From positions 1 through 43,118 of the forward strand of contig JAZROU010000073.1 in assembly GCA_045648865.1 (NCBI GenBank): a stretch of 43,118 bases of DNA. The letters run 5' to 3'. Made by a program: the position numbers and the translations under genes. The notes under the pieces are model-generated. The model had not been told where the DNA came from, made no database searches, and saw nothing but the letters and a program-made list of their open reading frames with translations. Origin of the DNA: Candidatus Enterousia sp. (GTDB lineage Bacteria > Pseudomonadota > Alphaproteobacteria > Rs-D84). Numbering within the stretch: position 1 is the stretch's first letter; each line of letters opens with the position of its first letter. Shown piece by piece: positions 9,074 through 28,479 of this stretch.

Positions 9074-10975
9074 ATGTCTGAAAAATTTCGTAAAATTGTT
9101 AACGCGCCACATAAGGCAGTTGGGCGTATAACCCAGGGAATAAAGCGTACACAGCCAAAAGGTGTGGTGGGAAATGTTGCAAAGGGGGCAGGAATGACTG
9201 TGACAGGGTTGTCGCAGTTTTTGTTGTGGATGGCAAAATATGTGACGCTGGATAATCATTTGTTGCGTGCGTGGGAACGGGCATTGGGTAAAATAAATGT
9301 TGGTAAAAATGAAAATGGTGAAAAAAATAAATTTCAAGAATTTATAAAACAAAATCCGAATCTGGCTGCGCATGTGATTTATTATATGATGACAGCTGCA
9401 ATTGTGTGGGGTGCAAAGCTGGGGTTGGATAATTCAGAACTGGCAGAGCTGGGGGATCAAATAAAGATAGAGCGCGAAATTAAAAAGGCTAAGGCGGGGA
9501 CGTATGCAGAATATCTGGATAAAATGAAACCGGTAGTGCCATATTTGGTCGCAGATTTAGTTGCGAAAGAGGGGGTTGTGACCAATGAAAATGGCGAACA
9601 TGTTCCTTATTTGGATGGTCAGGGGGTTTGGACAATTGGATTTGGTTCGACCGTGTTAAAAGATGGGACGCGTGTGAACAAAAATACACCGCCAATTACA
9701 ACACAACAGGCGTATGAATTGGCGTCTTGGCATATTGTTCAAAAAGAAACTTTGTTTAGGTTGTGGTGCTATGATGTCGCATTTGATAAGGTGGATATTA
9801 ATTCAGCAGCAGAACTGATTGCGCTGTCCGCGGCAACGTATAATGTTGGAACGGATTTAATAGAACAGCCACGCGTTGATGGAAAAAGAAATCGTGCGTA
9901 CAATGAAAGGTTCGCCGAATTGGATAAACTGCATAAAGAATATGGTAATGCAATTACGGCGGATATGGTGCGTGGTGTTTTTGCAAAATATCCTGTTAAA
10001 CATCCAACGTCGGTTGGAGAGGCGTGGTTGTATGGGAAAGATAAGGGAAAAATTGCAGATGCTTTGGGAAACTTTTTAAAGGGTGGAAACGGTTTGCGTT
10101 GGCGCAGATGGTTGGAAGCCCAGGTGATGAAAGGTAATATTAAACCAGAAGTTTTTTTGCAAATTCCCGTTGGGGCAATGTATGAATTTTATAATAAGAT
10201 TGGTGAAAAACGTGAAAACTGGTTTATTGAAAAAAAGGGACAACGGATTGTTAATGATAAAACGTTGCAAGAATTTTTAACGTGGGTAAAGAATCCAACG
10301 AATAAATCAGGACAGGCATTGACTGGTGCCAGATATAAACCTGTTATTGATTGGTTGCCAAAAGATGTTGCAAGCCAGTGTTTGGCCGGGAAATGTGAAA
10401 TTGGTGCCAGCGGTATTTGGGAAAATGTATTTGCGTCTAAGGAAAAAAGAAATGAATTAAAACAGGTCGAGATTAAGACATATGTCATAGGTTATGAAGA
10501 TCTGTATGCGGATGCAATCGGCAGCTTTAAGGCGGGCGATTATAATGCGGCCGCAAAAAAGTATGAAAAAATGATAGAACAATATCCAGATAATGCGTTG
10601 TTGCGTAATGATTTGGCTGCGACATATAACAAGTTGGGACGATATGATGACACGATTGTGCAGGCGCGCGAAGTGTTGAAAAGAATTGGCGATAGGTCGC
10701 AGTATGGTGCAGCGCAATATAATGCAGGATTTGCGTATGAGCAATTAGGTAACTTGCAAAAGGCGTTGGCGAATTATAAGTTGGCGTTGGCAAGTGGTAA
10801 TCGACGTGTGCAGCGTGATATTACACGTGTGGCTGAAAAAATGAAACAGGGCAAAAATGCTAAGATGGCATTCGGGGTCGGTAAACGACAAATTCAATCC
10901 AGGATAAAAAAATCGCAAAATAACAGGGGGGATTTGTTTGTTTATGGAAAAACCTATCAAGGAAATATGGCATAG
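9074..10975 (+). CDS. membrane-anchored GH24 (phage-type) lysozyme domain protein with C-terminal TPR repeats
   Basis: TM segment LAAHVIYYMMTAAIVWGAKLG. KEG...YLDGQGVWTIGFGST carries the Glu/Asp/Thr pattern of T4-type lysozymes. TPR-like segment YPDNALLRNDLAATYNKLGRYDD...AGFAYEQLGNLQKALANYKLAL. Confidence 0.7.
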   Translation: MSEKFRKIVNAPHKAVGRITQGIKRTQPKGVVGNVAKGAGMTVTGLSQFLLWMAKYVTLDNHLLRAWERALGKINVGKNENGEKNKFQEFIKQNPNLAAHVIYYMMTAAIVWGAKLGLDNSELAELGDQIKIEREIKKAKAGTYAEYLDKMKPVVPYLVADLVAKEGVVTNENGEHVPYLDGQGVWTIGFGSTVLKDGTRVNKNTPPITTQQAYELASWHIVQKETLFRLWCYDVAFDKVDINSAAELIALSAATYNVGTDLIEQPRVDGKRNRAYNERFAELDKLHKEYGNAITADMVRGVFAKYPVKHPTSVGEAWLYGKDKGKIADALGNFLKGGNGLRWRRWLEAQVMKGNIKPEVFLQIPVGAMYEFYNKIGEKRENWFIEKKGQRIVNDKTLQEFLTWVKNPTNKSGQALTGARYKPVIDWLPKDVASQCLAGKCEIGASGIWENVFASKEKRNELKQVEIKTYVIGYEDLYADAIGSFKAGDYNAAAKKYEKMIEQYPDNALLRNDLAATYNKLGRYDDTIVQAREVLKRIGDRSQYGAAQYNAGFAYEQLGNLQKALANYKLALASGNRRVQRDITRVAEKMKQGKNAKMAFGVGKRQIQSRIKKSQNNRGDLFVYGKTYQGNMA

Positions 10976-10991
10976 TGTGCCATTATAAAGA

Positions 10992-13004
10992 GTGGAAAAA
11001 ATGAAAATATATGTTGATGTTCATGATAGACGCTGGAACAAGTATAAGATTGATTTTGAAAAAATTGCTGCTTTGGTGGTTGGCGAAAAGTATAAAAATG
11101 CCGAAGTGTCAATAATTTTGACCAATGATTCGGAAATCCATGAAATCAATAAAACATATCGTAATGTTGACAGGCCGACAAATGTTCTGTCTTTTGAATT
11201 GGGCGATGATGTGTTGTTGGGCGATATTTATATATCGTATGATACTGTTATGCGTGAAGCAAAAGATGCAGACATTACATTTGCCGATCGTGTGGCGCAT
11301 ATGGTTGTTCATGGTATGTTTCATTTGTTGGGGTATGATCATTTAGATGATCAAGAAGCGGTGCTGATGGAAATGAAGGAAATTCGCGTGTTGAAAAAGT
11401 TGGGAATTAAAAATCCGTATGCAGATGAAGTGCTGGATGCTTGTCAGGATGGTGTTTGTTGCCCAGGTGGTGGATTAATTCGATTCGTGGGGCGATTTAA
11501 AATTCGCGAAAACGGATTTTGGCAATATGCGCTGTACGCACTGTTTGGTGGGGTTGCGTGTTTTGGGTTTGCGCCATTCTATCAGTGGTGGTGGACAATA
11601 ATTGGTATCGCTGGTGCGTATTGGTTGACCGTTCGTAACAAGAATATAGGTGGGTTTTGGAAAGCGTTGTTGCGTGTGTCGCCATTTGGTGCGATGTATG
11701 CATTGGCAAATTTTTGGTGGGTGTTGCATTCTATTTATGTGGTGCCAGAACTGGCGCAGCAGTTTGCAATTTGGACAATCCCAGGTGTGATTGGTTTGGC
11801 AATCGCGGGCGCGTTGATTTTTTCGTGGCCATTTATTGCGATTGCGCGTGTGCGCACATCAAATGCAGGTCGCGCGGTTTTGTTTGCCTGTGTTTGGGGT
11901 TTGGTGCTGTGGGCACGTGAATGGATGTTTACGGGGTTCCCATGGAATCCGGTCGCGAATATAACAATGCCGTTGCCAGTGTTGGCAAATTCAATGGCGC
12001 TGTGGGGTGCGTTGGGGTTGACGGTTGTTATTGTTGGTGCCGTGGCGATAATGGTTGAGGTTTTGCGCAACAGAAAATGCCGCAAGTGTTGGGCGATGAT
12101 GTGTGTGCTGGGGATTATTGGGTGTGTGGGTGTGTTTGTTGGCTATAAAAACATGCAATATTCTGATTTTGGTGCAGATTCAACAGGACCGATGATACGT
12201 ATCGTTCAGCCAGCAAATTCGCAGTTGCAAAAGTCGACTCATAATCGGGAACAGGTGTTGGCCAGGGCAGAATATAACATGCAACAGTTAATGCGTTTGG
12301 CGGCGCAGGGTGAAAGTGTGGATATTGTTATTTTTCCTGAAACAACATATCCGTTTGTGGTTGTGCCGGGGGATAAAATAGAAATTGCTGGGGGGGTGGG
12401 ACGGCCAGTGGTTATTGGTGCAAATACATTTGACGGAAAAAAATTGTCTAATTCTATGATCGTGACGGATGAATATGGAAATATTCAAATGGTTTACAAT
12501 AAATCGCATTTGGTTCCATTTGGCGAATATAGTCCATTGGGGCTTTTCCCGACGCCTGTGGATTTAGCGCCAGGTAGTGGGCCGGATTTAATTGCAATCG
12601 GTGATTTTATTTTTGCGCCGGCGGTGTGTTATGAGATTATTTTTTCTGATTCTTTGTTATTGGATTCTGGGGACGGTGACGTGCATGCGATTGTGAACAT
12701 AACAAATGATAATTGGTTTGGAAATACGCCGGGTACGTATCAGCATTTGGATATGGTGCGTCGGTATGCGATTGAATCAGGGCTGCCGATTATTCGGGCA
12801 AATTATTCTGGGATAAGTGCGTTTGTTGCGGCAGATGGCGCAGTAATATCGGCATTGCCTGTTGGTGCGGTGGGGACATTGGATGGTTTTGTTTGGGGTG
12901 CGCATAAGACGCCGTATCGTGCAATCGGTTTGAATGGATGGATGATAGTGATATTGGTTTTGTCTATTATTGGAATTCGACTGTGTGATGGTAAAAGGAA
13001 TTAG
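10992..13004 (+). CDS. fusion protein: YbeY endoribonuclease domain + apolipoprotein N-acyltransferase (Lnt)
   Basis: Residues 1-146 are YbeY-like (HMVVHGMFHLLGYDH). A Cys/Gly linker follows. Residues about 176-670 are Lnt-like: multi-TM N-terminus and a CN-hydrolase triad (FPET, NKSHLVPFGEY, VCYEIIF). The frame is continuous. GTG 10992 or ATG 11001 could be the start. Confidence 0.8.
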   Translation: MEKMKIYVDVHDRRWNKYKIDFEKIAALVVGEKYKNAEVSIILTNDSEIHEINKTYRNVDRPTNVLSFELGDDVLLGDIYISYDTVMREAKDADITFADRVAHMVVHGMFHLLGYDHLDDQEAVLMEMKEIRVLKKLGIKNPYADEVLDACQDGVCCPGGGLIRFVGRFKIRENGFWQYALYALFGGVACFGFAPFYQWWWTIIGIAGAYWLTVRNKNIGGFWKALLRVSPFGAMYALANFWWVLHSIYVVPELAQQFAIWTIPGVIGLAIAGALIFSWPFIAIARVRTSNAGRAVLFACVWGLVLWAREWMFTGFPWNPVANITMPLPVLANSMALWGALGLTVVIVGAVAIMVEVLRNRKCRKCWAMMCVLGIIGCVGVFVGYKNMQYSDFGADSTGPMIRIVQPANSQLQKSTHNREQVLARAEYNMQQLMRLAAQGESVDIVIFPETTYPFVVVPGDKIEIAGGVGRPVVIGANTFDGKKLSNSMIVTDEYGNIQMVYNKSHLVPFGEYSPLGLFPTPVDLAPGSGPDLIAIGDFIFAPAVCYEIIFSDSLLLDSGDGDVHAIVNITNDNWFGNTPGTYQHLDMVRRYAIESGLPIIRANYSGISAFVAADGAVISALPVGAVGTLDGFVWGAHKTPYRAIGLNGWMIVILVLSIIGIRLCDGKRN

Positions 13005-13059: not shown

Positions 13060-14970
13060 ATGAAGTTGTTTAAGCGAATTTTATTTCTGGCTTTGTGCGC
13101 AACCCCGGTGTTTGCGCATGCCCAGGTTGCAACAACATCGGGCAGTAATTTGACCGCATGGAATGGGAATGCAGGGGCGACAAATAACAATAATTGGAAC
13201 CAGTTGATGAACAGTCGTGCCATGGCATCTGGTGGGGCAGGTGGGGCGACTGCTGATTTTGGAAATTGTAATTCGCTGATTTTGCGTTGTGCGCAACCAA
13301 AGTGCGCCGGTTGTTCAACCATAGATGTGGCACGGCCAATTGTCGCAGGATGCGTTAACAGTAATGCGGCCTGCAAAAAACATGGTGATGAATTAATAGA
13401 TTTTATTTCTGCCCAGATGGTGTCAAATGCAAACAGCAAGGCACAGCAGGCACAGTTGGCCGTGCAACAGGCCGCCGCACAGAATGATGAGCAATTGAAA
13501 CAAATGCAGATGCAAATGGCGCAAATGCAGGAAGATATGCAGGCACAAAATGAACAACAAATGGCACAGATGCAGGCTGCATTAGAAGAACAAAAGGCAT
13601 TGGTTGCAGCCGCCACAGAACAAAAGAATCAGCAGACACAGGAAGCTGTTTCTGAAACTGGGACAGGTGGGGGGCAGACGGCTGAATTGTCTGATGAAAT
13701 GCGTAACGCCGCAGAAAATGGTGTCGATCCGGATATTTTAGTGCGAAAGCAAATTTCTGGTCAAATATTGACCAAAATAGAGGCGGCTGAAAACGCACTG
13801 AAGACATTAAAGGTTACAATGGACGAAGCGTTCGATTATGCCGGATGTGATTCGCGTGGCAATAATTGCGCAGGACCAAAGCGTGTCAAAACATTCAAGG
13901 AAAAGGCACATGCGTTCTTTGAACCATATGACGAAATCGTAGATGAAGCGTACGATGGGTTGGAAATGGCGTTGGCGGTTGGTGTGGATGTTTCTGATGT
14001 CATTATGATGTTAAGTGGGGCGTGCAACCAGTGGGGTAAATTTTTGTGTACAGGCGTCGGTGAAAAGCACGAAGTTGAATATTATACAAACGATACGTGC
14101 AAGAATGGACGGTCGGTAAAACGTGGTGTTGTTAAGGGCGGACAGGAATGTACGGTAAAGATGGCGGTGCCACCCCAGGATGATTCGCGGTGTACGTTGA
14201 CCCAATTGATTGCCGGTGGTGGTGATAATGATCCGGTGTTCCGTGAATGGTTAGATGAAAATTACGAAGGGGATCGATTGGTGCGTGTTGGTTGTGCGAC
14301 GTCATCGCTGGAATCAATCGCAATATTTGGACGTCGTAACAGCAAGAAAGGGGCGACGTTGGATTTGGACACGTTGGAACGTATTATCTTGCAGGATGCG
14401 CCAGAAACGGTCGGGGTAAACAGGTTTTCAAGTGCAAAGTATGATGCAGAAACAGAACGATTGAAATACTGTGCACTGACACCGACAGGGTATCAGAATT
14501 TGTTGACAGCGGTACAGTCTAAGAAATTACCGAAAAAGATTTGTGTAAAAAATGAACAGTTGGCACAAACATGGTACTATGGCGGGCCAATTGCATCAGG
14601 GGTAATTGATACAGGGTTGGACAATGGTAAAATTATAGCTGCCGCAGGTGAACAGGAAATCTGTGACAGGTGGAAGGCGCTGGCGCCAAGTGGTTGTGAG
14701 GTTGGATGGAATGAAACAGATAAGCGTTGCAAATTGACCAAGGGTGATTGTGTGTTTGTTGGCAATGATATATTGAGTAAAACCGAATATAACCAGCGTG
14801 AAAACGCCAGACTGGTAGAGCTTGAAAAGGATACTTATAAGGGAGTACATGAAGATTGTGATAATGCAGGTGGTGTCTTTAAGGTTGATGGTAAATGTTA
14901 TTGTGGTAATGTACATTTTAGAACAGATTTGTATAAATGTGACAAGGACAAGCATTTAGTTAATAAATAA
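13060..14970 (+). CDS. secreted Cys-rich coiled-coil protein, unknown function
   Basis: Signal peptide MKLFKRILFLALCATPVFAHA. About 28 Cys in the mature protein. Q/M-rich coiled-coil tract. C-terminal C-x-C clusters. I recognise no family. Confidence 0.7.
   Translation: MKLFKRILFLALCATPVFAHAQVATTSGSNLTAWNGNAGATNNNNWNQLMNSRAMASGGAGGATADFGNCNSLILRCAQPKCAGCSTIDVARPIVAGCVNSNAACKKHGDELIDFISAQMVSNANSKAQQAQLAVQQAAAQNDEQLKQMQMQMAQMQEDMQAQNEQQMAQMQAALEEQKALVAAATEQKNQQTQEAVSETGTGGGQTAELSDEMRNAAENGVDPDILVRKQISGQILTKIEAAENALKTLKVTMDEAFDYAGCDSRGNNCAGPKRVKTFKEKAHAFFEPYDEIVDEAYDGLEMALAVGVDVSDVIMMLSGACNQWGKFLCTGVGEKHEVEYYTNDTCKNGRSVKRGVVKGGQECTVKMAVPPQDDSRCTLTQLIAGGGDNDPVFREWLDENYEGDRLVRVGCATSSLESIAIFGRRNSKKGATLDLDTLERIILQDAPETVGVNRFSSAKYDAETERLKYCALTPTGYQNLLTAVQSKKLPKKICVKNEQLAQTWYYGGPIASGVIDTGLDNGKIIAAAGEQEICDRWKALAPSGCEVGWNETDKRCKLTKGDCVFVGNDILSKTEYNQRENARLVELEKDTYKGVHEDCDNAGGVFKVDGKCYCGNVHFRTDLYKCDKDKHLVNK
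13492..13587 (+). repeat. in-frame ATGCAR-type repeat encoding a Q/M-rich tract
   Basis: Translation reads QLKQMQMQMAQMQEDMQAQNEQQMAQMQAALE. It generates the spurious 279-aa antisense ORF 12777..13616. Confidence 0.7.
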
Positions 14971-14977
14971 AAAAGAA

Positions 14978-15730
14978 ATGAAAGTGTTGAAAAATATTTT
15001 GGCTGGGGTGTTTGCGGGACTGGTGTTGGTGACACCGGTGGTGGCGGATAATGGATGCGAAAATGATGAAAATGATGCAATTGTGGCGGAATTGGCGCTG
15101 TGTTCAACGCATGCCTATAATATTGGTGCAACAAAAAATCCAAGTGGTGCAGACAAGGAATTTATGCGTGATGTTATCGCAATGAAAACAACACTGATAA
15201 CACAGCAGATGTATCGGCAATATGAACAGATGGAATCTATGCTGCGCAGATTGAAAACACAATTGGAAAAAGCTGTGCTGACAACCAAATTAAATGCCGC
15301 AGGGGCAGTGGCCAGTTCAGGTGATTCAAGGAGCGCGTATGTAATTCCAGAAGATGGGTTCCAGTCGAATGACAGAAATATTCATATGGCAGATGTTAAG
15401 AATTGTAATAATGAACTGTTGCCGACAGATGTTTTACAGTGTCTGAATGATAACATGGGTGTGATATCAGAAAAAACAGGTAATGCAGATAACGTTAATT
15501 CTGAGGTTGCAAAGCAATTGGCAAATGACTTTAAGTTGTTAAAGAGTGTTTCCGTTGCGAATGATGACAAGTGTGTATATAAGATAAGTGATAAAGATAC
15601 AGATGACACATGTTTGGATGATAAGCTGATTCGTAAAAAGAAAAATTTTCGAACCTGTTTTGATAATATGCGTAATTGTTTGCGTAATAAAATGTATATA
15701 GTGTCGCAGAACGAAAGAAAAGCAAAGTAG
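14978..15730 (+). CDS. secreted Cys-containing coiled-coil protein, unknown function
   Basis: Starts 8 nt after the preceding gene. Signal peptide MKVLKNILAGVFAGLVLVTPVVA. 9 Cys. The N-terminal module loosely resembles that of the upstream protein (LxLC...(D/K)E(L/F)(I/M)xD(F/V)I(S/A)). Confidence 0.65.
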   Translation: MKVLKNILAGVFAGLVLVTPVVADNGCENDENDAIVAELALCSTHAYNIGATKNPSGADKEFMRDVIAMKTTLITQQMYRQYEQMESMLRRLKTQLEKAVLTTKLNAAGAVASSGDSRSAYVIPEDGFQSNDRNIHMADVKNCNNELLPTDVLQCLNDNMGVISEKTGNADNVNSEVAKQLANDFKLLKSVSVANDDKCVYKISDKDTDDTCLDDKLIRKKKNFRTCFDNMRNCLRNKMYIVSQNERKAK

Positions 15731-15745
15731 AGATTAAAAAATATT

Positions 15746-15769
15746 GGCCCGCAATGCGGGCTGATTTAT
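15746..15769. terminator. bidirectional hairpin between convergent genes
   Basis: Stem GCCCGC/GCGGGC (15747-15752/15756-15761), loop AAT. Overlaps the stop codon of the RHH gene. Confidence 0.6.
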
Positions 15770-15987
15770 TGACATGGGGCAATGCGCAGTATCATTTGGT
15801 TCAATACCCATACGCGTACCGCAGATGATAAATTTTTGTCGGGTGTGCGTGTTTGATCAATTTCATTTATTATTTGGGCAATTGGTTTGCCGGCGCGTGC
15901 AGCCAACGCATGCAGCGCGTCTATAAATTCTGGTTCCAGGGTTATGCTGGTTTGATGACCAGACAAAGATACTGATAATTTTTTCAT
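15766..15987 (-). CDS. ribbon-helix-helix (RHH_4-like) DNA-binding protein
   Basis: MKKLSVSLSGHQTSITLEPEFIDALHALAARAGKPIAQIINEID...NLSSAVRVWVL matches the alphaproteobacterial RHH_4 pattern. ATG 15987 has RBS AGGAAAG. Starts 4 nt after the upstream stop. Confidence 0.7.
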   Translation of the reverse strand: MKKLSVSLSGHQTSITLEPEFIDALHALAARAGKPIAQIINEIDQTRTPDKNLSSAVRVWVLNQMILRIAPCQ

Positions 15988-15991
15988 GGTT

Positions 15992-16426
15992 TTATATCTT
16001 TCCTGCAATTAAACAATCGGTCAGTGCACGATACGGATCGTCGTATTTGCGCAATGGTGACAGGGTCAGGTTGTCCAACATATAGCATACGCCAAATGCG
16101 TCAAAGGCAAACCAGAATAAATCATTGCGACCAAATATTGTTTTGCCAATTGTTTGTGAAATCGATGATATGTCTTCGTTTACCTTGGTTATCGATGGAA
16201 TTGGAAAACGTAGTCCCTGGGGGATTTCGTTTGGACCAAAAATACATCCGTTGCCCAGAATAATGCCGCCGGTTCTGGTGTACAATTCGGACATAAATGC
16301 AGGTAACATTGCACGACGACGCTGTTGCAGTGCGGTATTGGTCAGGCCAATTTGGCTGGGCGTAATGGCAGGGGAAAATTGCGCCCCGCGTGATTTTATG
16401 TGTGCCAAAAATTCGTCTGTTGTCAT
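15992..16426 (-). CDS. SUKH/SMI1-KNR4-like protein (putative immunity protein)
   Basis: 144 aa from ATG 16426. The pattern LPAFMSELYTRTGG...IFG...GKTIFGRNDLFWFAFDAFGVCYMLD...YDDPYRALTDCL fits the SUKH-1 layout from memory. The upstream part of the ORF-track entry is R-rich junk. Confidence 0.55.
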   Translation of the reverse strand: MTTDEFLAHIKSRGAQFSPAITPSQIGLTNTALQQRRRAMLPAFMSELYTRTGGIILGNGCIFGPNEIPQGLRFPIPSITKVNEDISSISQTIGKTIFGRNDLFWFAFDAFGVCYMLDNLTLSPLRKYDDPYRALTDCLIAGKI

Positions 16427-16443
16427 TGTGTTGTCCGTCTTGT

Positions 16444-16947
16444 TCAGATGTCGCGATTGCCTGCGATTTGTGCGCCGATTTGCGCCAGGCGATCTTCTGT
16501 CGCATTTCCACCATCGCCACCGCCGGCGGTGTGTGCGGGTAGATATATCTTCTTGGTTGGGTTGGGTAACCATATGCTGGGGGCGCCAGACTGCATTATT
16601 ATAAATCGATCCATGTTATATGAATGCGGATATGTCCAGCACATAAATAAATTGTCTGTTTCCAGACGGCCACCCCACATCAAGGGGACGCGAAAACGGA
16701 TGGATATGTTCTGGGGTAGATCGCGCCCAGTTATTATATTCATAAATTCATCCTGGCCAAGGTTCATAAATGCCAATGTTTCAACAGAATCCGTTAAAGA
16801 TGACATAAATTCATGGCATAATGTCTTATAGCGGGAAAACCAGTCTGATGGTACATGGGATGGGGTGGGGCGAACCTCGGTCAGGGGCAGGTCTGACATC
16901 CCCATATCTGAAATTAATTTTTCTGCGGTGCTCGCGTTTAATTGCAT
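16444..16947 (-). CDS. hypothetical protein with degenerate HNH-like (beta-beta-alpha-Me) core
   Basis: 167 aa. IRFRVPLMWGGRLETDNLFMCWTYPH matches HNH spacing (P-x3-GG-x4-DN-L-x7-H), but Arg-Phe sits where His-His is expected. Its ATG overlaps the upstream stop (TAATG). Confidence 0.5.
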   Translation of the reverse strand: MQLNASTAEKLISDMGMSDLPLTEVRPTPSHVPSDWFSRYKTLCHEFMSSLTDSVETLAFMNLGQDEFMNIITGRDLPQNISIRFRVPLMWGGRLETDNLFMCWTYPHSYNMDRFIIMQSGAPSIWLPNPTKKIYLPAHTAGGGDGGNATEDRLAQIGAQIAGNRDI

Positions 16948-17837
16948 TAAATCTTTCCAATGTAATCTATTACGGTTGATATATAGGCCGAGAATGCATC
17001 AAAGTTTTCGATGTCTTCTGTGCCCAGTGGTGGATTTTTATGTTCATTCATATATTGCCGTAATGCGCCGGGGGTGTCAAATGTTAATATTTGGGGGGCG
17101 CTGGGGGCGGACATGTCAGGGGGAAATACGACAAAGCCGTTGATATTTATTACAATATCGTCCAATGTGTCGGAAAATATTTGGCCGATGGTATCAATCG
17201 CGGTTTGCATGGCAGATGTGGGAACACCAACGGCACCAATCCATAATGTTTCATTTGTGCCAATCGCAAACAGTGATGTTTGCAGATTGCCGATTTTTGG
17301 TGTGGACTTTAACGTATAACCCGTGGATTCAAAAATTTCACGAATTTCAGGCCAGTCAGATGTGCCTGATGTGGCGGATGACTGGGGGGTGGTGGTTGGG
17401 GCACTGTATAATTGTGGTGTGACAGATATGTTTAAGCGCGGCGGACGTGACAGTCCAGGTGTGTCGGTTTGTGGCGCAGGTGTGGGTTCTGGGGTCGGGG
17501 TGGGTGTTTGTGCCGGCGCAGGTGTCGGGGGCTGTGGCGTAGATGTGGGCTTTTTCGGGCGTGAATACAGGTTTCGTATGGGCATTTTAAATTTCTTAAA
17601 ACGTGGGCGTAGTAATATGTGTAGACCAAGCATAACAATTGCTACGGCCATAACCATGGATATGTAAAATGCGGGTGCAACAGGATTTTGCGATGCCTGC
17701 ATGTATGCCAGATGGCGCCAGTGTGCAGATGAAAATAGATTAAAACCAAAACGGATGTCGAACCAAAAACATGCCACAAGGGTTGATGCACATATCCATA
17801 AGGTTGCAAGTAAAAAGTTATTTAATCTGTCTTTCAT
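16947..17837 (-). CDS. membrane protein: 2 TM helices + Pro/Thr-rich linker + unknown C-terminal domain
   Basis: 296 aa. TM segments at residues about 8-26 and 55-76. PT-rich linker at residues 94-159. The roughly 135-aa C-terminal alpha/beta-looking domain is one I cannot place. Confidence 0.6.
   Translation of the reverse strand: MKDRLNNFLLATLWICASTLVACFWFDIRFGFNLFSSAHWRHLAYMQASQNPVAPAFYISMVMAVAIVMLGLHILLRPRFKKFKMPIRNLYSRPKKPTSTPQPPTPAPAQTPTPTPEPTPAPQTDTPGLSRPPRLNISVTPQLYSAPTTTPQSSATSGTSDWPEIREIFESTGYTLKSTPKIGNLQTSLFAIGTNETLWIGAVGVPTSAMQTAIDTIGQIFSDTLDDIVININGFVVFPPDMSAPSAPQILTFDTPGALRQYMNEHKNPPLGTEDIENFDAFSAYISTVIDYIGKI
17361..17558 (-). repeat. coding low-complexity Pro/Thr tract
   Basis: Translation reads PKKPTSTPQPPTPAPAQTPTPTPEPTPAPQTDTP...PTTTPQSSATSGTS. 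It generates the antisense Gly/Val-rich ORF 17323..17667. Confidence 0.7.
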
Positions 17838-17881
17838 AACGTTTTTAATTGTATCATATTTGTGATAAACTAAAAAGCATT

Positions 17882-18550
17882 ATGATTGATAAAAATGCTG
17901 TTTTTGATTTTATTGGTGTAAATGCCGCAGTTTGGTGCGGGGCTGATATGGATGCGACTGATTTAGCGAAAAGTGTACAGTTCGTAAATGAAAAAAAATT
18001 GTCAATGATTTCTGTTGCGCCAAATGTTGTACAGACTGTGTGGCCGTGGCTGGAAGCTGGCAATGTGAAAATTATGTCGCGATTTTATATGGAAAAAATC
18101 AACGAAGGTCAAATTTCGGATGTCACAGTAAGGATAAATTCTGCGCTGCGTCAGGGGGCGCATGGGGCACAAATATTTTTGCCATACAGGGTTTTGGCGG
18201 AATTGGTTGAACAAACACATGTCGTTCGTGATGATTTGTTCTTTAACAAGGATTTGGCAATCGGTATGGATATTGCCGATGTTGGACCGTTCGATTGGGA
18301 TGATGTGTTTGCTAATTTGCGAAAAATTAATGCGTCGTCTGTGATATTTGTTTTAACGAAAGATTCTGGTGATAAATCGGATTTTGTTGGGCGTTTGTAT
18401 GGGATGTTAAATGCCTGGGGAATGGATAATAAATTTAATCTGCATTTTGCATTTGGCCCGAATTTCATGCGTATAGAGCAGGCGCAACGTTTGGTGCAAC
18501 AGGTGCGTCCAATGCTGATGGATGGTTTGCGATTTTGGATTAATTTCTGA
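17882..18550 (+). CDS. hypothetical protein, weak DeoC/aldolase-like TIM-barrel resemblance
   Basis: ATG 17882 is preferred over TTG 17849. KKLSMISVAPNVVQTVWPWLEAGNVKIM and VLTKDSG loosely parallel the DeoC strands and the Schiff-base Lys region. This is pattern-level only. Confidence 0.35.
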   Translation: MIDKNAVFDFIGVNAAVWCGADMDATDLAKSVQFVNEKKLSMISVAPNVVQTVWPWLEAGNVKIMSRFYMEKINEGQISDVTVRINSALRQGAHGAQIFLPYRVLAELVEQTHVVRDDLFFNKDLAIGMDIADVGPFDWDDVFANLRKINASSVIFVLTKDSGDKSDFVGRLYGMLNAWGMDNKFNLHFAFGPNFMRIEQAQRLVQQVRPMLMDGLRFWINF

Positions 18551-26703: not shown

Positions 26704-28479
26704 TTGAATTATAATGCACTTGATAATAAAAAAAAGAGAAGTGCGTTGAGTCGGATAGTAGAGAAGTCCATGCTGGGCAAAGCATGGGTTATGGCTGGTG
26801 GTGTTGGTGATGTAAATTCAGACGATCTGGTGAAAAAAATTTTGGCCGGACGTGGAATTGTTGCTGATGCCGAAGTGAAAAAATTTTTAAATCCTTCGAT
26901 TAAAGAATATATGCCGGATCCGTCTGTATTGGCTGATATGGATGTGGCAGCGGGGGTTATTGCAGATGCGATTGTGGCGGGACATAAAATCGCAATTTAT
27001 GGCGATTATGATGTCGATGGAATAACATCAACGGCAATTTTTGTAAAGTATCTGCGTGCGGTAAATGCAAATGTTATTTGGCATTTGCCAACCCGCGAGG
27101 GGGAAGGGTACGGCCTGAATAATGATGCAATTGATGAAATTGTAAAAAGTGGTGCAAATCTGCTGGTGACGGTTGATTGTGGTATCAGTGGCGCGGACGA
27201 GGTTGCGCATGCACGTGAAATGGGGCTGCGGGTGGTTGTGACAGATCATCATTCGCCGGATTGTGTGTTGCCTGTGGCGGACGCGGTTGTTAATCCAAAA
27301 CGTATGGATGATACGTCGAATATGACGTATTTGGCGGGTGTTGGGGTGGCGTTTTTGGCGCTGGTTGCGTTGAATCGCGAATTGAAAAGTCGTGGTTTAG
27401 GATTGGAAAATTCCGAACTGATGAATTATATGGATTTGGTCGCGCTGGGGACGATTTGCGATACCATGCCGTTGATAGGATTAAATCGCGCCTTTGTTGC
27501 GACGGGACTGAAAGTTTTAGGGTTGCGACAAAACCTGGGGTTGCGTGTGTTGATGGATGTTGCAGGGATTAAGCAACCGTCTGTTTATGCGGCGGGGTTT
27601 GCGTTGGGGCCACGTTTGAATGCAGCGGGACGATAGGATTCTGCGGCGCCTGCGTTGGATTTGTTGTTGACAGATAATCCGCTGATTGCAAATGACCTGG
27701 CGAATAAATTGCATGCGATGAATCAGGAACGTATCGATATTCAAAACGCGATTATGTTGCGGGCGTGTGAAATGGCAGAAGATTGTTGTAAGTCTGGTCG
27801 GTGCAGTCTGTTTGTTTGTGGTGAAAATTGGCATGGTGGTGTGATGGGGATTATCGCAGGCCGGTTGAAGGATAAGTATAATTTGCCGTCTTGTGTGGCA
27901 ACTAAATCTGATGGGGTTATAAATGGGTCTGGACGTTCAATCCCAGGGGTAGATTTGGGAAAAATTATTCATGATGCGTTGGCCGCGGGCGTTATTAGCG
28001 AAGGTGGCGGACACGCAGCCGCCGCTGGGTTTTCGTTGAACGTGGAAAATGAAGGCAGATTTTGTGAATTTTTAGAACGGGCGGTGATAGAACAACTGAA
28101 CGGGGAAATGCCGGCGCCAGAAATCTTGGTCGATGCGGAAATAGATGCAGGTGGGGCGAATATGAGGCTGGTTAAGAATATGTCACAATTGGCGCCGTTT
28201 GGTCAGGGAAATCCAGAACCAACGCTGGTTCTGCGGGGTGGGGTATTAAGATATGCGTCTGTTATGGGGGGCGGGGCACATTTGCGTGGTGCAATTACCA
28301 CCAGTTTGGGCAACCAGTTGTCTTTTGTTGGGTTTAATTTAGTTGGAACACCGGTTGGTGATTTTTTGCTGGACGATGCAAACATAAATACTAAAATAAT
28401 GCTGTTGGGCAAATTAAAAGAAAATGAGTATAATGGGCGTGTTAGTGCACAGTTCTTTGTAGAAGATGTCGCGATATAA
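26704..28479 (+). pseudogene. recJ: recJ single-stranded-DNA exonuclease interrupted by one in-frame TAG (27634-27636)
   Basis: The two ORFs 26704..27636 and 27655..28479 are in the same frame. DHH motifs GDYDVDG, TVDCG and VVVTDHH are present. The stop falls inside the conserved GPRLNAAGR-[L] motif. DHHA1 motif GGGHAAAAG lies downstream. Confidence 0.8.

Follow-up and report, generated by a model that had tools for sequence, protein, structure and literature searches.

Contig JAZROU010000073.1 of Candidatus Enterousia sp. (assembly GCA_045648865.1; 43,118 nucleotides, called the window below and analysed in its whole length) carries a tightly packed operon of four minus-strand genes: g1 (16947-17837, 296 aa), g2 (16444-16947, 167 aa), g3 (15992-16426, 144 aa when started at the second ATG of a longer open reading frame, ORF) and g4 (15766-15987, 73 aa counted from an internal ATG of a TTG-started ORF). 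We propose, with a probability of about 60%, that the operon encodes an exapted, non-toxic module made up of a dead HNH protein (g2), a former immunity protein (g3) and a membrane tether (g1). Judged by profile comparisons, g2 and g3 descend from an HNH nuclease/YrhA (SUKH) immunity pair of the kind found on enterobacterial conjugative plasmids and integrative and conjugative elements (ICEs). In the arrangement we envisage, g2 would bind nucleic acid or protein as a non-catalytic subunit, with g3 as its obligate binding partner; g1, translationally coupled to g2, would tether the assembly to the inner membrane on the cytoplasmic side by means of its transmembrane hairpin, its Pro/Thr linker and its degenerate NERD-like domain. 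The fourth protein, g4, could either autoregulate a palindromic promoter or supply sequence-specific DNA binding, and would be expressed with the module from a compact, symmetric promoter region that also serves an orphan divergent gene.

The operon is a fixed feature of its lineage. A scan of one genome per GTDB species with a narrow g2 alignment (A4) found a g2 relative in 190 species genomes (Ca. Enterousia and related metagenome-assembled genomes, MAGs); the locus comparisons use the 80 loci kept from these genomes, and 81 loci with enough sequence. By title, the 80 loci belong to Ca. Enterousia or to gut MAGs called 'Alphaproteobacteria bacterium' (chicken, ruminants, horse, human), and they also include termite-type 'Rickettsiales bacterium' bins and chromosomes of 0.72 and 0.96 Mb. 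The order g1-g2-g3-g4, together with the divergent gene, is the same in all 81 informative loci; the locus normally lies between trmB and ybeY-lnt, with its chromosomal position fixed across the lineage, and each of the 80 distinct genome loci kept has a single copy of the operon. Coordinates and spacing of the four genes are as given in a preliminary description of the window: the stop of g1 and the start of g2 share one nucleotide (TAATG), g2 and g3 are separated by 17 nt, and g3 and g4 by 4 nt. The overlap is retained in 68 of the 81 loci. Just past the g4 stop, the hairpin noted earlier at this end was located at 15761-15747 on the minus strand (GCCCGC-ATT-GCGGGC, a GC-rich stem, followed by a T-run); this terminator-like element closes the operon and is common to it and the convergent upstream gene.

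Median identity to the window is 65% for g2, 62% for g3, 67% for g4 and 43% for g1, compared with 71% for GltX and 59% for YbeY-Lnt. The ratio of nonsynonymous to synonymous substitution (dN/dS, from unsaturated pairs) is 0.02-0.07 for g2, 0.05-0.12 for g3, 0.12-0.21 for g1 and 0-0.29 for g4: g2 and g3 are under strong purifying selection, at rates like those of GltX or YbeY-Lnt. Because synteny is complete, the overlap is so often retained and dN/dS is well below 1 for all genes, the operon is real far beyond chance, and it is best explained as a core locus that Candidatus Enterousia inherits vertically. Genomes smaller than 1 Mbp normally shed useless genes, and retention of the operon despite genome reduction argues for a useful cellular function. 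That the locus lies among housekeeping genes of a reduced genome, as first described, agrees with the reported genome size of the order Rs-D84 (<1 Mbp, with predicted dependence on other cells; PMC12306168) and with the rest of the window, which is housekeeping: ThrRS, YebC, FabD, MgsA, YbeY-Lnt, TrmB, GltX and DksA, and further PBP2, RecJ, LolA, TatC, MiaB and GatB. The central proposal of the preliminary description, a conflict or self-protection module with a toxin candidate, does not fit an invariant block under purifying selection in which the HNH histidines are replaced in 81 of 81 loci. Nor did a neighbourhood survey bear out the idea that genes 2 and 3 are replaced as a cassette, since the same orthologues occupy all 81 loci. 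The same description had also named the opposite outcome, a universally conserved syntenic housekeeping block with a known function; the conservation is there, and a known function was not found.

The ancestry of g2 emerged from its distant relatives. Window g2 matched no family in Pfam or NCBIfam, and a g2 profile search of PDB sequences gave no match. Distant relatives were found by exhaustive profile search, and one of them was then searched against plasmids: the g2-like domain matched 458 enterobacterial plasmids, of which 433 are conjugative. There the gene is annotated 'HNH endonuclease' and is followed immediately by a gene for a YrhA family protein, and the same HNH + YrhA pair is present in an E. 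coli ICE. The plasmid protein has a canonical VHHKIPLDDGG...DNL...PYH motif and matches PF01844 with E=2.6e-5 (24.7 bits; cut-off 21.4). Aligned with hhalign, the g2 family (A1) matches the plasmid HNH pair with a probability of 87.5% (E=3.6e-6, 123 columns), while intermediates encoded next to VirD4 match the plasmid/ICE HNH proteins at E=2.5e-20 to 8.5e-17 and also match nearly all Enterousia loci. The HNH-like core that had been read from the letters alone is thus upheld by profile comparison, both directly and through intermediates at E=1e-17 to 1e-20, and g2 appears to be descended from an HNH nuclease. The beta-beta-alpha core would lie at about aa 78-119 (16591-16716, minus strand), as placed by the AlphaFold2 (AF2) model and the hhalign register; in the model (pLDDT 79.7) strands span residues 81-85 and 100-104 and a helix residues 105-118.

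The catalytic residues of that core have gone. Aligned in register with the plasmid protein and with the HNH model of Pfam, g2 has R84 in place of the first His of the HNH motif (R in 80 of 81 orthologues) and, where strand 1 ends, F85 in place of the general-base His (written H in 'dHiiP'), a position that is F in 68, L in 10 and M in 3 of the 81. The central Asn is kept in every orthologue (N99, 81/81), the next His is replaced by S109 (S in 77/81), and the position in the following helix is D113 (D in 81/81); N99 is thus the only one of the metal ligands kept, and R84, S109 and D113 stand at the His positions. The nearest His, H108, is variable (H58/Q9/Y5/N5 over 81 sequences), and among the 81 g2 sequences there is neither an invariant His nor a Tyr at the general-base position. 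A systematic classification of His-Me fingers counts groups that lack the His and have no Tyr substitute as catalytically inactive proteins in which DNA or substrate binding can be retained (PMC5714182). From the sequence, then, the nuclease of g2 appears to have been disarmed. The VirD4-linked alphaproteobacterial relatives keep the first His and a PFHxxIH helix, with I or L at the general-base position. The g2 family also seems to have gained a Gly-rich C-terminal motif, GG-x-GGN-x-T-x-DR (aa 143-154, 16486-16521, minus strand), which is invariant and is not present in the enterobacterial HNH relatives. The protein stands alone (166-172 aa in 81 of 81 loci; 402 homologues listed, 151-170 aa and nearly all 166-170, with 63-99% identity), and inspection of the sequences revealed no signal peptide or carrier domain. 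Membership of the Tox-REHH family was considered and ruled out: the Tox-REHH toxin retains three conserved His (preprint), whereas g2 has none.

The partner gene g3 starts 0-25 nt past g2 in 80 of the 81 loci, and the pairing of g2 with g3 was found in every distant context examined. A Pfam scan of g3 and a g3 profile search of PDB sequences gave no match. The AF2 model (pLDDT 91.8, pTM 0.86) predicts a SUKH fold, as the preliminary description had suspected: the top four Foldseek PDB matches are 2PRV (YobK), 2ICG, 3D5P and 2PAG (probability 0.99-1.0, E=3.8e-4 to 4.4e-2, TM 0.55-0.68), which together with Syd (3FFV) are treated as homologous structures in the work that defined the superfamily (PMC3113570). 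Against the YrhA model NF038335, g3 scores 13.9 bits (E=0.038), under the curated 55-bit cut-off; the partners of distant g2 relatives score 65.7 (L003), 57.3 (L090) and 38.2 bits (L087), and the plasmid partner 125 bits. Compared as families, g3 and the YrhA group align with a probability of 90.6% (hhalign, E=1.3e-6). These scores point to a distant relative of the YrhA family that is not a member by the curated rule. The g3 family itself is uniform in length: there are 714 homologues, and the 120 listed are 143-152 aa long, nearly all of them 144.

The third component of the proposed module, g1, has the features of a membrane anchor, and here hydropathy and composition agree with the two helices and the Pro/Thr linker described before. 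Hydropathy places the first transmembrane helix at about aa 8-26 (17760-17816) and the second at about aa 56-76 (17610-17672), with hydrophobic segments centred at about aa 14-19 and 60-71; charge counts and composition delimit a basic segment and Pro/Thr linker at aa 77-160 (17358-17609), with nine K/R in aa 77-100 and 78% P/T/S/Q/A in aa 94-160 (all on the minus strand, as is the C-terminal domain). Because of the positive-inside rule, the linker and the C-terminal domain are predicted to be cytoplasmic. The linker contains a conserved RPPR(L) motif whose R131-P132 are invariant in a 20-sequence alignment (A5). The C-terminal domain (aa 161-296, 16950-17357), acidic by charge counts, is harder to place. 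Direct Pfam and NCBIfam scans of window g1 gave nothing usable, NERD (PF08378) matched neither window g1 nor 19 of 20 orthologues, and a profile search of PDB sequences with the g1-like proteins gave no match. Alignment A5 does match distant, longer g1-like proteins (hhalign probability 94.5%, E=7.8e-8); set against these, the C-terminal domain of Enterousia g1 has a central deletion of about 29 aa that falls on the NERD core. Formal NERD membership, which calls for a Pfam match and the nuclease core D...(D/E)xK, is rejected, and the domain is best described, on sequence grounds, as a degenerate, internally deleted NERD-like remnant.

The last gene of the operon, g4, matches RHH_4 (PF13467) over positions 2-66 of the 67 in the profile (75 bits, cut-off 25; E=5e-21), a match that marks it as a ribbon-helix-helix (RHH) DNA-binding protein of this family and agrees with the preliminary description. 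It follows g3 in 81 of 81 loci and is also present in the distant modules L005, L090, L092 and L095. On the other side of the operon lies the divergent gene (17882-18550, plus strand, 222 aa from ATG 17882; a longer ORF reaches TTG 17849). The 44-bp gap to g1 that had been described holds if the start is ATG 17882. The opening MI(D/E) codons are shared by 18 orthologues; in all 18 mapped, the gene lies 40-60 nt from g1, and tblastn finds a match in 80 loci. The protein matched nothing in Pfam or among PDB sequences and is an orphan; C19, W54, W56 and E58 are invariant in it, and an ISVAP motif is conserved.

Inverted-repeat analysis showed that the region between the two genes is a 52-bp imperfect palindrome, including both start codons (17834-17885), with 23-nt arms at 17834-17856 and 17863-17885 that are 78% complementary and a core, TATCA-N6-TGATA, at 17852-17867; the exact core occurs once in the window. 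The arms correspond to the TGnTA of extended -10 elements, TGATACAAT for g1 and TGATAAAGT for the divergent gene, with the end of each element placed 10 nt from the respective ATG. Over 78 loci at which the encoded proteins have diverged to 40-65% identity, the 44 bp separating the two genes hardly vary, with conservation of at least 90% at most positions of the CTTTTT...CAAT core. We read the 44-bp region as two putative back-to-back promoters giving near-leaderless transcripts. The distant locus L005 shows, by eye, the same promoter logic with TGCTATAAT and TGCTAGAAT, in another arm sequence and with other spacing; symmetry alone is therefore no proof of an RHH operator, though such an operator would fit it well, and the idea that TATCA-N6-TGATA is primarily such an operator was set aside. 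The segment 17834-17885 is a candidate for RHH binding as well as for promoter function.

A possible cellular role is suggested by the company that relatives of these genes keep, since association with type IV machinery is recurrent among them. The enterobacterial, catalytically intact relatives adjoin transfer genes, namely TraG_N and TrhH on the plasmid and TraI in the ICE. Among the distant MAG loci, g2, g3 and RHH_4 recur together in L090, L092 and L095, preceded by a g1-like protein with transmembrane, linker and NERD-like parts in L090, L095 and probably L092; in L095 the neighbours of the module are large proteins encoded in an array, one of which matches TrbL (VirB6) weakly, and homologues of these large proteins are found in L090. 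Four further loci (L096, L097, L099, L100) encode, in this order, a TrbL-like protein, three to four proteins of about 320-360 aa, VirD4, a g2-like protein with an N-terminal extension and a YrhA-type SUKH protein, which amounts to the order g1-like-VirD4-g2-like-YrhA; the VirD4-g2-like-SUKH portion is also found in L003 and L086. In L096 the protein directly upstream of VirD4 is a g1 homologue, matching in the NERD-like domain with E=5e-12 and sharing (by eye) the N-terminal membrane motif FWF...HW-x-YLQ. The partners in the VirD4-linked MAGs are labelled 'YrhA family protein' by NCBI. Shared flanking genes and cluster names gave no placement of the VirD4-linked lineages relative to Enterousia.

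Two observations on these loci may be added. The VirD4 proteins of L096, L097, L003 and L086 are 92-95% identical despite a contig GC of 0.38-0.53, and the DUF1189 proteins neighbouring those VirD4 genes are just 30-63% identical; either extreme constraint on VirD4 or recent horizontal movement of a VirD4/g2-like/YrhA unit could account for this likeness. Upstream of VirD4 stand three to four tandem genes (~320-360 aa; 3144-7506 in L097 and 2420-6860 in L099), and at least the last of them in L096 is g1-like; loci of the type IV secretion system (T4SS) may thus carry a paralogous array of membrane NERD-like proteins.

Since homologues of g1, g2 and g3 flank VirD4 or lie beside VirB6-like arrays in sister lineages, a role as accessory, adaptor or regulator of type IV secretion, or in DNA handling at the membrane, is the function we favour, although we put it forward tentatively and at less than even odds. 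A narrower version, in which g1-g3 would be an unrecognised accessory module (an adaptor or gate) of alphaproteobacterial type IV coupling proteins, is more doubtful. Small cytoplasmic or RHH proteins acting with a VirD4-type ATPase are known as type IV coupling adaptors (IcmS-IcmW-LvgA on DotL; the RHH relaxosome accessory proteins TraY/TrwA). The likeness to them lies in genes beside virD4, with g1-like, g2-like and YrhA genes bracketing virD4 in relatives; in contrast to this link by neighbourhood, which is confined to sister lineages, the Enterousia proteins have no sequence or fold relationship to the adaptors.

The closest relatives, the enterobacterial HNH + YrhA pair (IncHI2 plasmid NZ_CP067381.1, WP_224379386.1/WP_000654195.1; E. 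coli C5 ICE), share homology over about 120 aa, comprising a helical N-region, the beta-beta-alpha core and a following 'LWPxPxGxIY' strand, as well as a SUKH/YrhA gene immediately downstream, and they are associated with type IV (conjugative) transfer genes. However, the enterobacterial HNH protein has the canonical HH...N...H, sits on mobile elements, varies at its N-terminus and has no Gly-rich C-terminal tail, whereas the Enterousia pair has no motif His, is chromosomal and fixed, and lies between a NERD-like membrane gene on one side and an RHH_4 gene on the other. Polymorphic toxin loci such as B. subtilis YobL-YobK likewise have a SUKH gene directly after an HNH-fold gene (PMC3113570), and YobK (2PRV) is the best structural match of g3; unlike them, the Enterousia locus has no large secreted carrier, no cassette polymorphism and no intact active site, and selection on it is purifying. 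A precedent for the exaptation of a SUKH domain is E. coli Syd (SUKH-2), which binds SecY and represents recruitment to a non-immunity role at a membrane machine (PMC3113570). Like g3, Syd is a SUKH domain kept as a conserved chromosomal protein, but it belongs to another SUKH subgroup, has no nuclease-fold partner gene and is linked to g3 here at the superfamily level. For g2, dead His-Me fingers such as Smad MH1 and the ENPP nuclease-like domain have kept the fold and binding while losing the general-base His/Tyr (PMC5714182), though these are eukaryotic proteins in unrelated contexts with no immunity-type partner. Finally, omega-epsilon-zeta loci resemble the operon in having a separate RHH regulator gene beside an inhibitor/effector pair, but they have the reverse gene order and encode unrelated protein families, and toxicity in Enterousia is unlikely. 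Omega-epsilon-zeta loci are plasmid-borne and patchy in distribution.

Several results weigh against an exapted, T4SS-related module and have to be set beside this evidence. For the beta-beta-alpha-Me fold of g2, which the preliminary description had proposed to check by profile and structure searches, Foldseek returned nothing significant with the model (best E=0.27 in PDB, 0.31 in BFVD); many of the weak matches were HNH domains (Cas8-HNH, ZRANB3, Gme HNH, phage HNH). The polar residues invariant in g2 (N80, R84, R86, N99, D113, Q119, D152, R153) could form a new active site, and the Tox-REHH preprint reports that a deeply divergent HNH toxin can hide its active site. The NERD assignment of g1 depends on sub-threshold matches in distant orthologues, that is, in the longer g1-like proteins and the L005 orthologue (E=0.0068 and 0.016; 17.3 and 16.1 bits against a cut-off of 22.1). 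Two back-to-back extended -10 elements suffice to produce the palindrome, which hence is no evidence of RHH binding. Last, there are no T4SS genes within the 43-kb window, and no T4SS-gene adjacency was seen at Enterousia loci.

One rival explanation is a working three-component toxin/immunity or addiction module like omega-epsilon-zeta, with an RHH regulator, a SUKH antitoxin and an HNH-derived toxin; g2 would then act non-canonically, for example by tight DNA binding or through a rebuilt active site, and the module, being impossible to lose, would have become fixed. An RHH regulator within the operon, a SUKH gene immediately downstream of the HNH homologue in every context seen, the many invariant polar residues and the invariant C-terminal motif of g2, and the report of a divergent HNH toxin with an obscured active site are all consistent with it. 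We nevertheless consider it unlikely: g2 lacks both an invariant His and a Tyr in the general-base position, the window has no mobile-element genes adjoining the operon, synteny is fixed with a single copy at each of the 80 loci kept and a g2 relative in 190 species genomes, and dN/dS values of 0.02-0.12 are opposite to the diversifying pattern typical of toxin/immunity pairs. If g2 were instead a secreted type IV effector, used on or against neighbouring cells and accompanied by g3 as chaperone or immunity protein, this would make sense of the long Pro/Gln-rich N-terminal extensions and conserved C-terminal tail of the VirD4-linked relatives, of the conjugative elements and variable N-termini (191, 345 and 370 aa) of the enterobacterial ones, and of the predicted dependence of the lineage on other cells. 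This is highly improbable given the loss of the catalytic residues with no evident effector activity, the tight coupling of the pair to an inner-membrane protein with predicted cytoplasmic domains, and the strongly purifying selection.

An explanation of another sort keeps the non-toxic module but detaches it from type IV secretion: three disarmed folds that bind nucleic acid (NERD-like, HNH-like and RHH) would act together on chromosomal DNA at the inner membrane, as a DNA-handling system or a nucleoid-membrane tether, for example in segregation, in repair or in controlling the divergent gene. Each of the three folds is associated with DNA, inactive His-Me fingers can keep DNA binding (PMC5714182), there are no T4SS genes near the Enterousia locus, and in L087 the g2-g3 pair occurs alone among housekeeping genes. 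Against this stands the repeated linkage of g1, g2 and g3 homologues to VirD4 or VirB6-like genes in other lineages, and we regard a tether independent of T4SS as about as improbable as the addiction module.

If the exapted module is indeed what the operon encodes, it offers a clean, testable case of a conflict system turned into a cellular component. Toxin/immunity pairs are normally fast-evolving, mobile and dispensable. The kind of parts is known (an HNH fold with a SUKH partner, and an RHH regulator), and a literature search found no description of this module; what appears undescribed in the literature found is the disarmed, fixed core-operon form with its membrane NERD remnant, its C-terminal motif and the VirD4/VirB6 linkage. 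Members of the g2 and g3 families (402 and 714 sequence clusters) are labelled just 'hypothetical protein', and the proposal provides a working hypothesis and names for families with hundreds of such members. The homologues found repeatedly around VirD4 point to an uncharacterised T4SS accessory in uncultured, partner-dependent gut Alphaproteobacteria; if this is true, the operon would be near-essential in partner-dependent Enterousia for exchanging DNA or proteins with other cells.

Other features of the window were noted in passing. Between g4 and ybeY-lnt, two genes (13060-14970 and 14978-15730) encode Cys-rich proteins with signal-peptide-like N-termini and no family match; by tblastn, both are found at this position only in the window, L010 and L011, and are elsewhere or absent in other loci, so that a variable insertion spot (13060-15730) adjoins the invariant operon. 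The neighbouring 670-aa ORF (10992-13004) is a fusion of the YbeY endoribonuclease with apolipoprotein N-acyltransferase (LNT_N + CN_hydrolase), a fusion also seen in relatives (669 aa in L001, 596 aa in L005). Beside ybeY-lnt, in the window (9074-10975) as in relatives, lies a gene for a 633-aa protein with a phage-lysozyme-type domain and C-terminal TPR repeats, which may be a specialised cell-wall hydrolase. Finally, recJ (26704-28479) is split by one in-frame TAG (27634-27636) within the conserved ...PRLNAAGR*D... motif, leaving an upstream ORF with DHH and a downstream ORF with DHHA1 and RecJ_OB in the same frame; possible causes are a nonsense pseudogene, a mistake in the assembly or a site of read-through.

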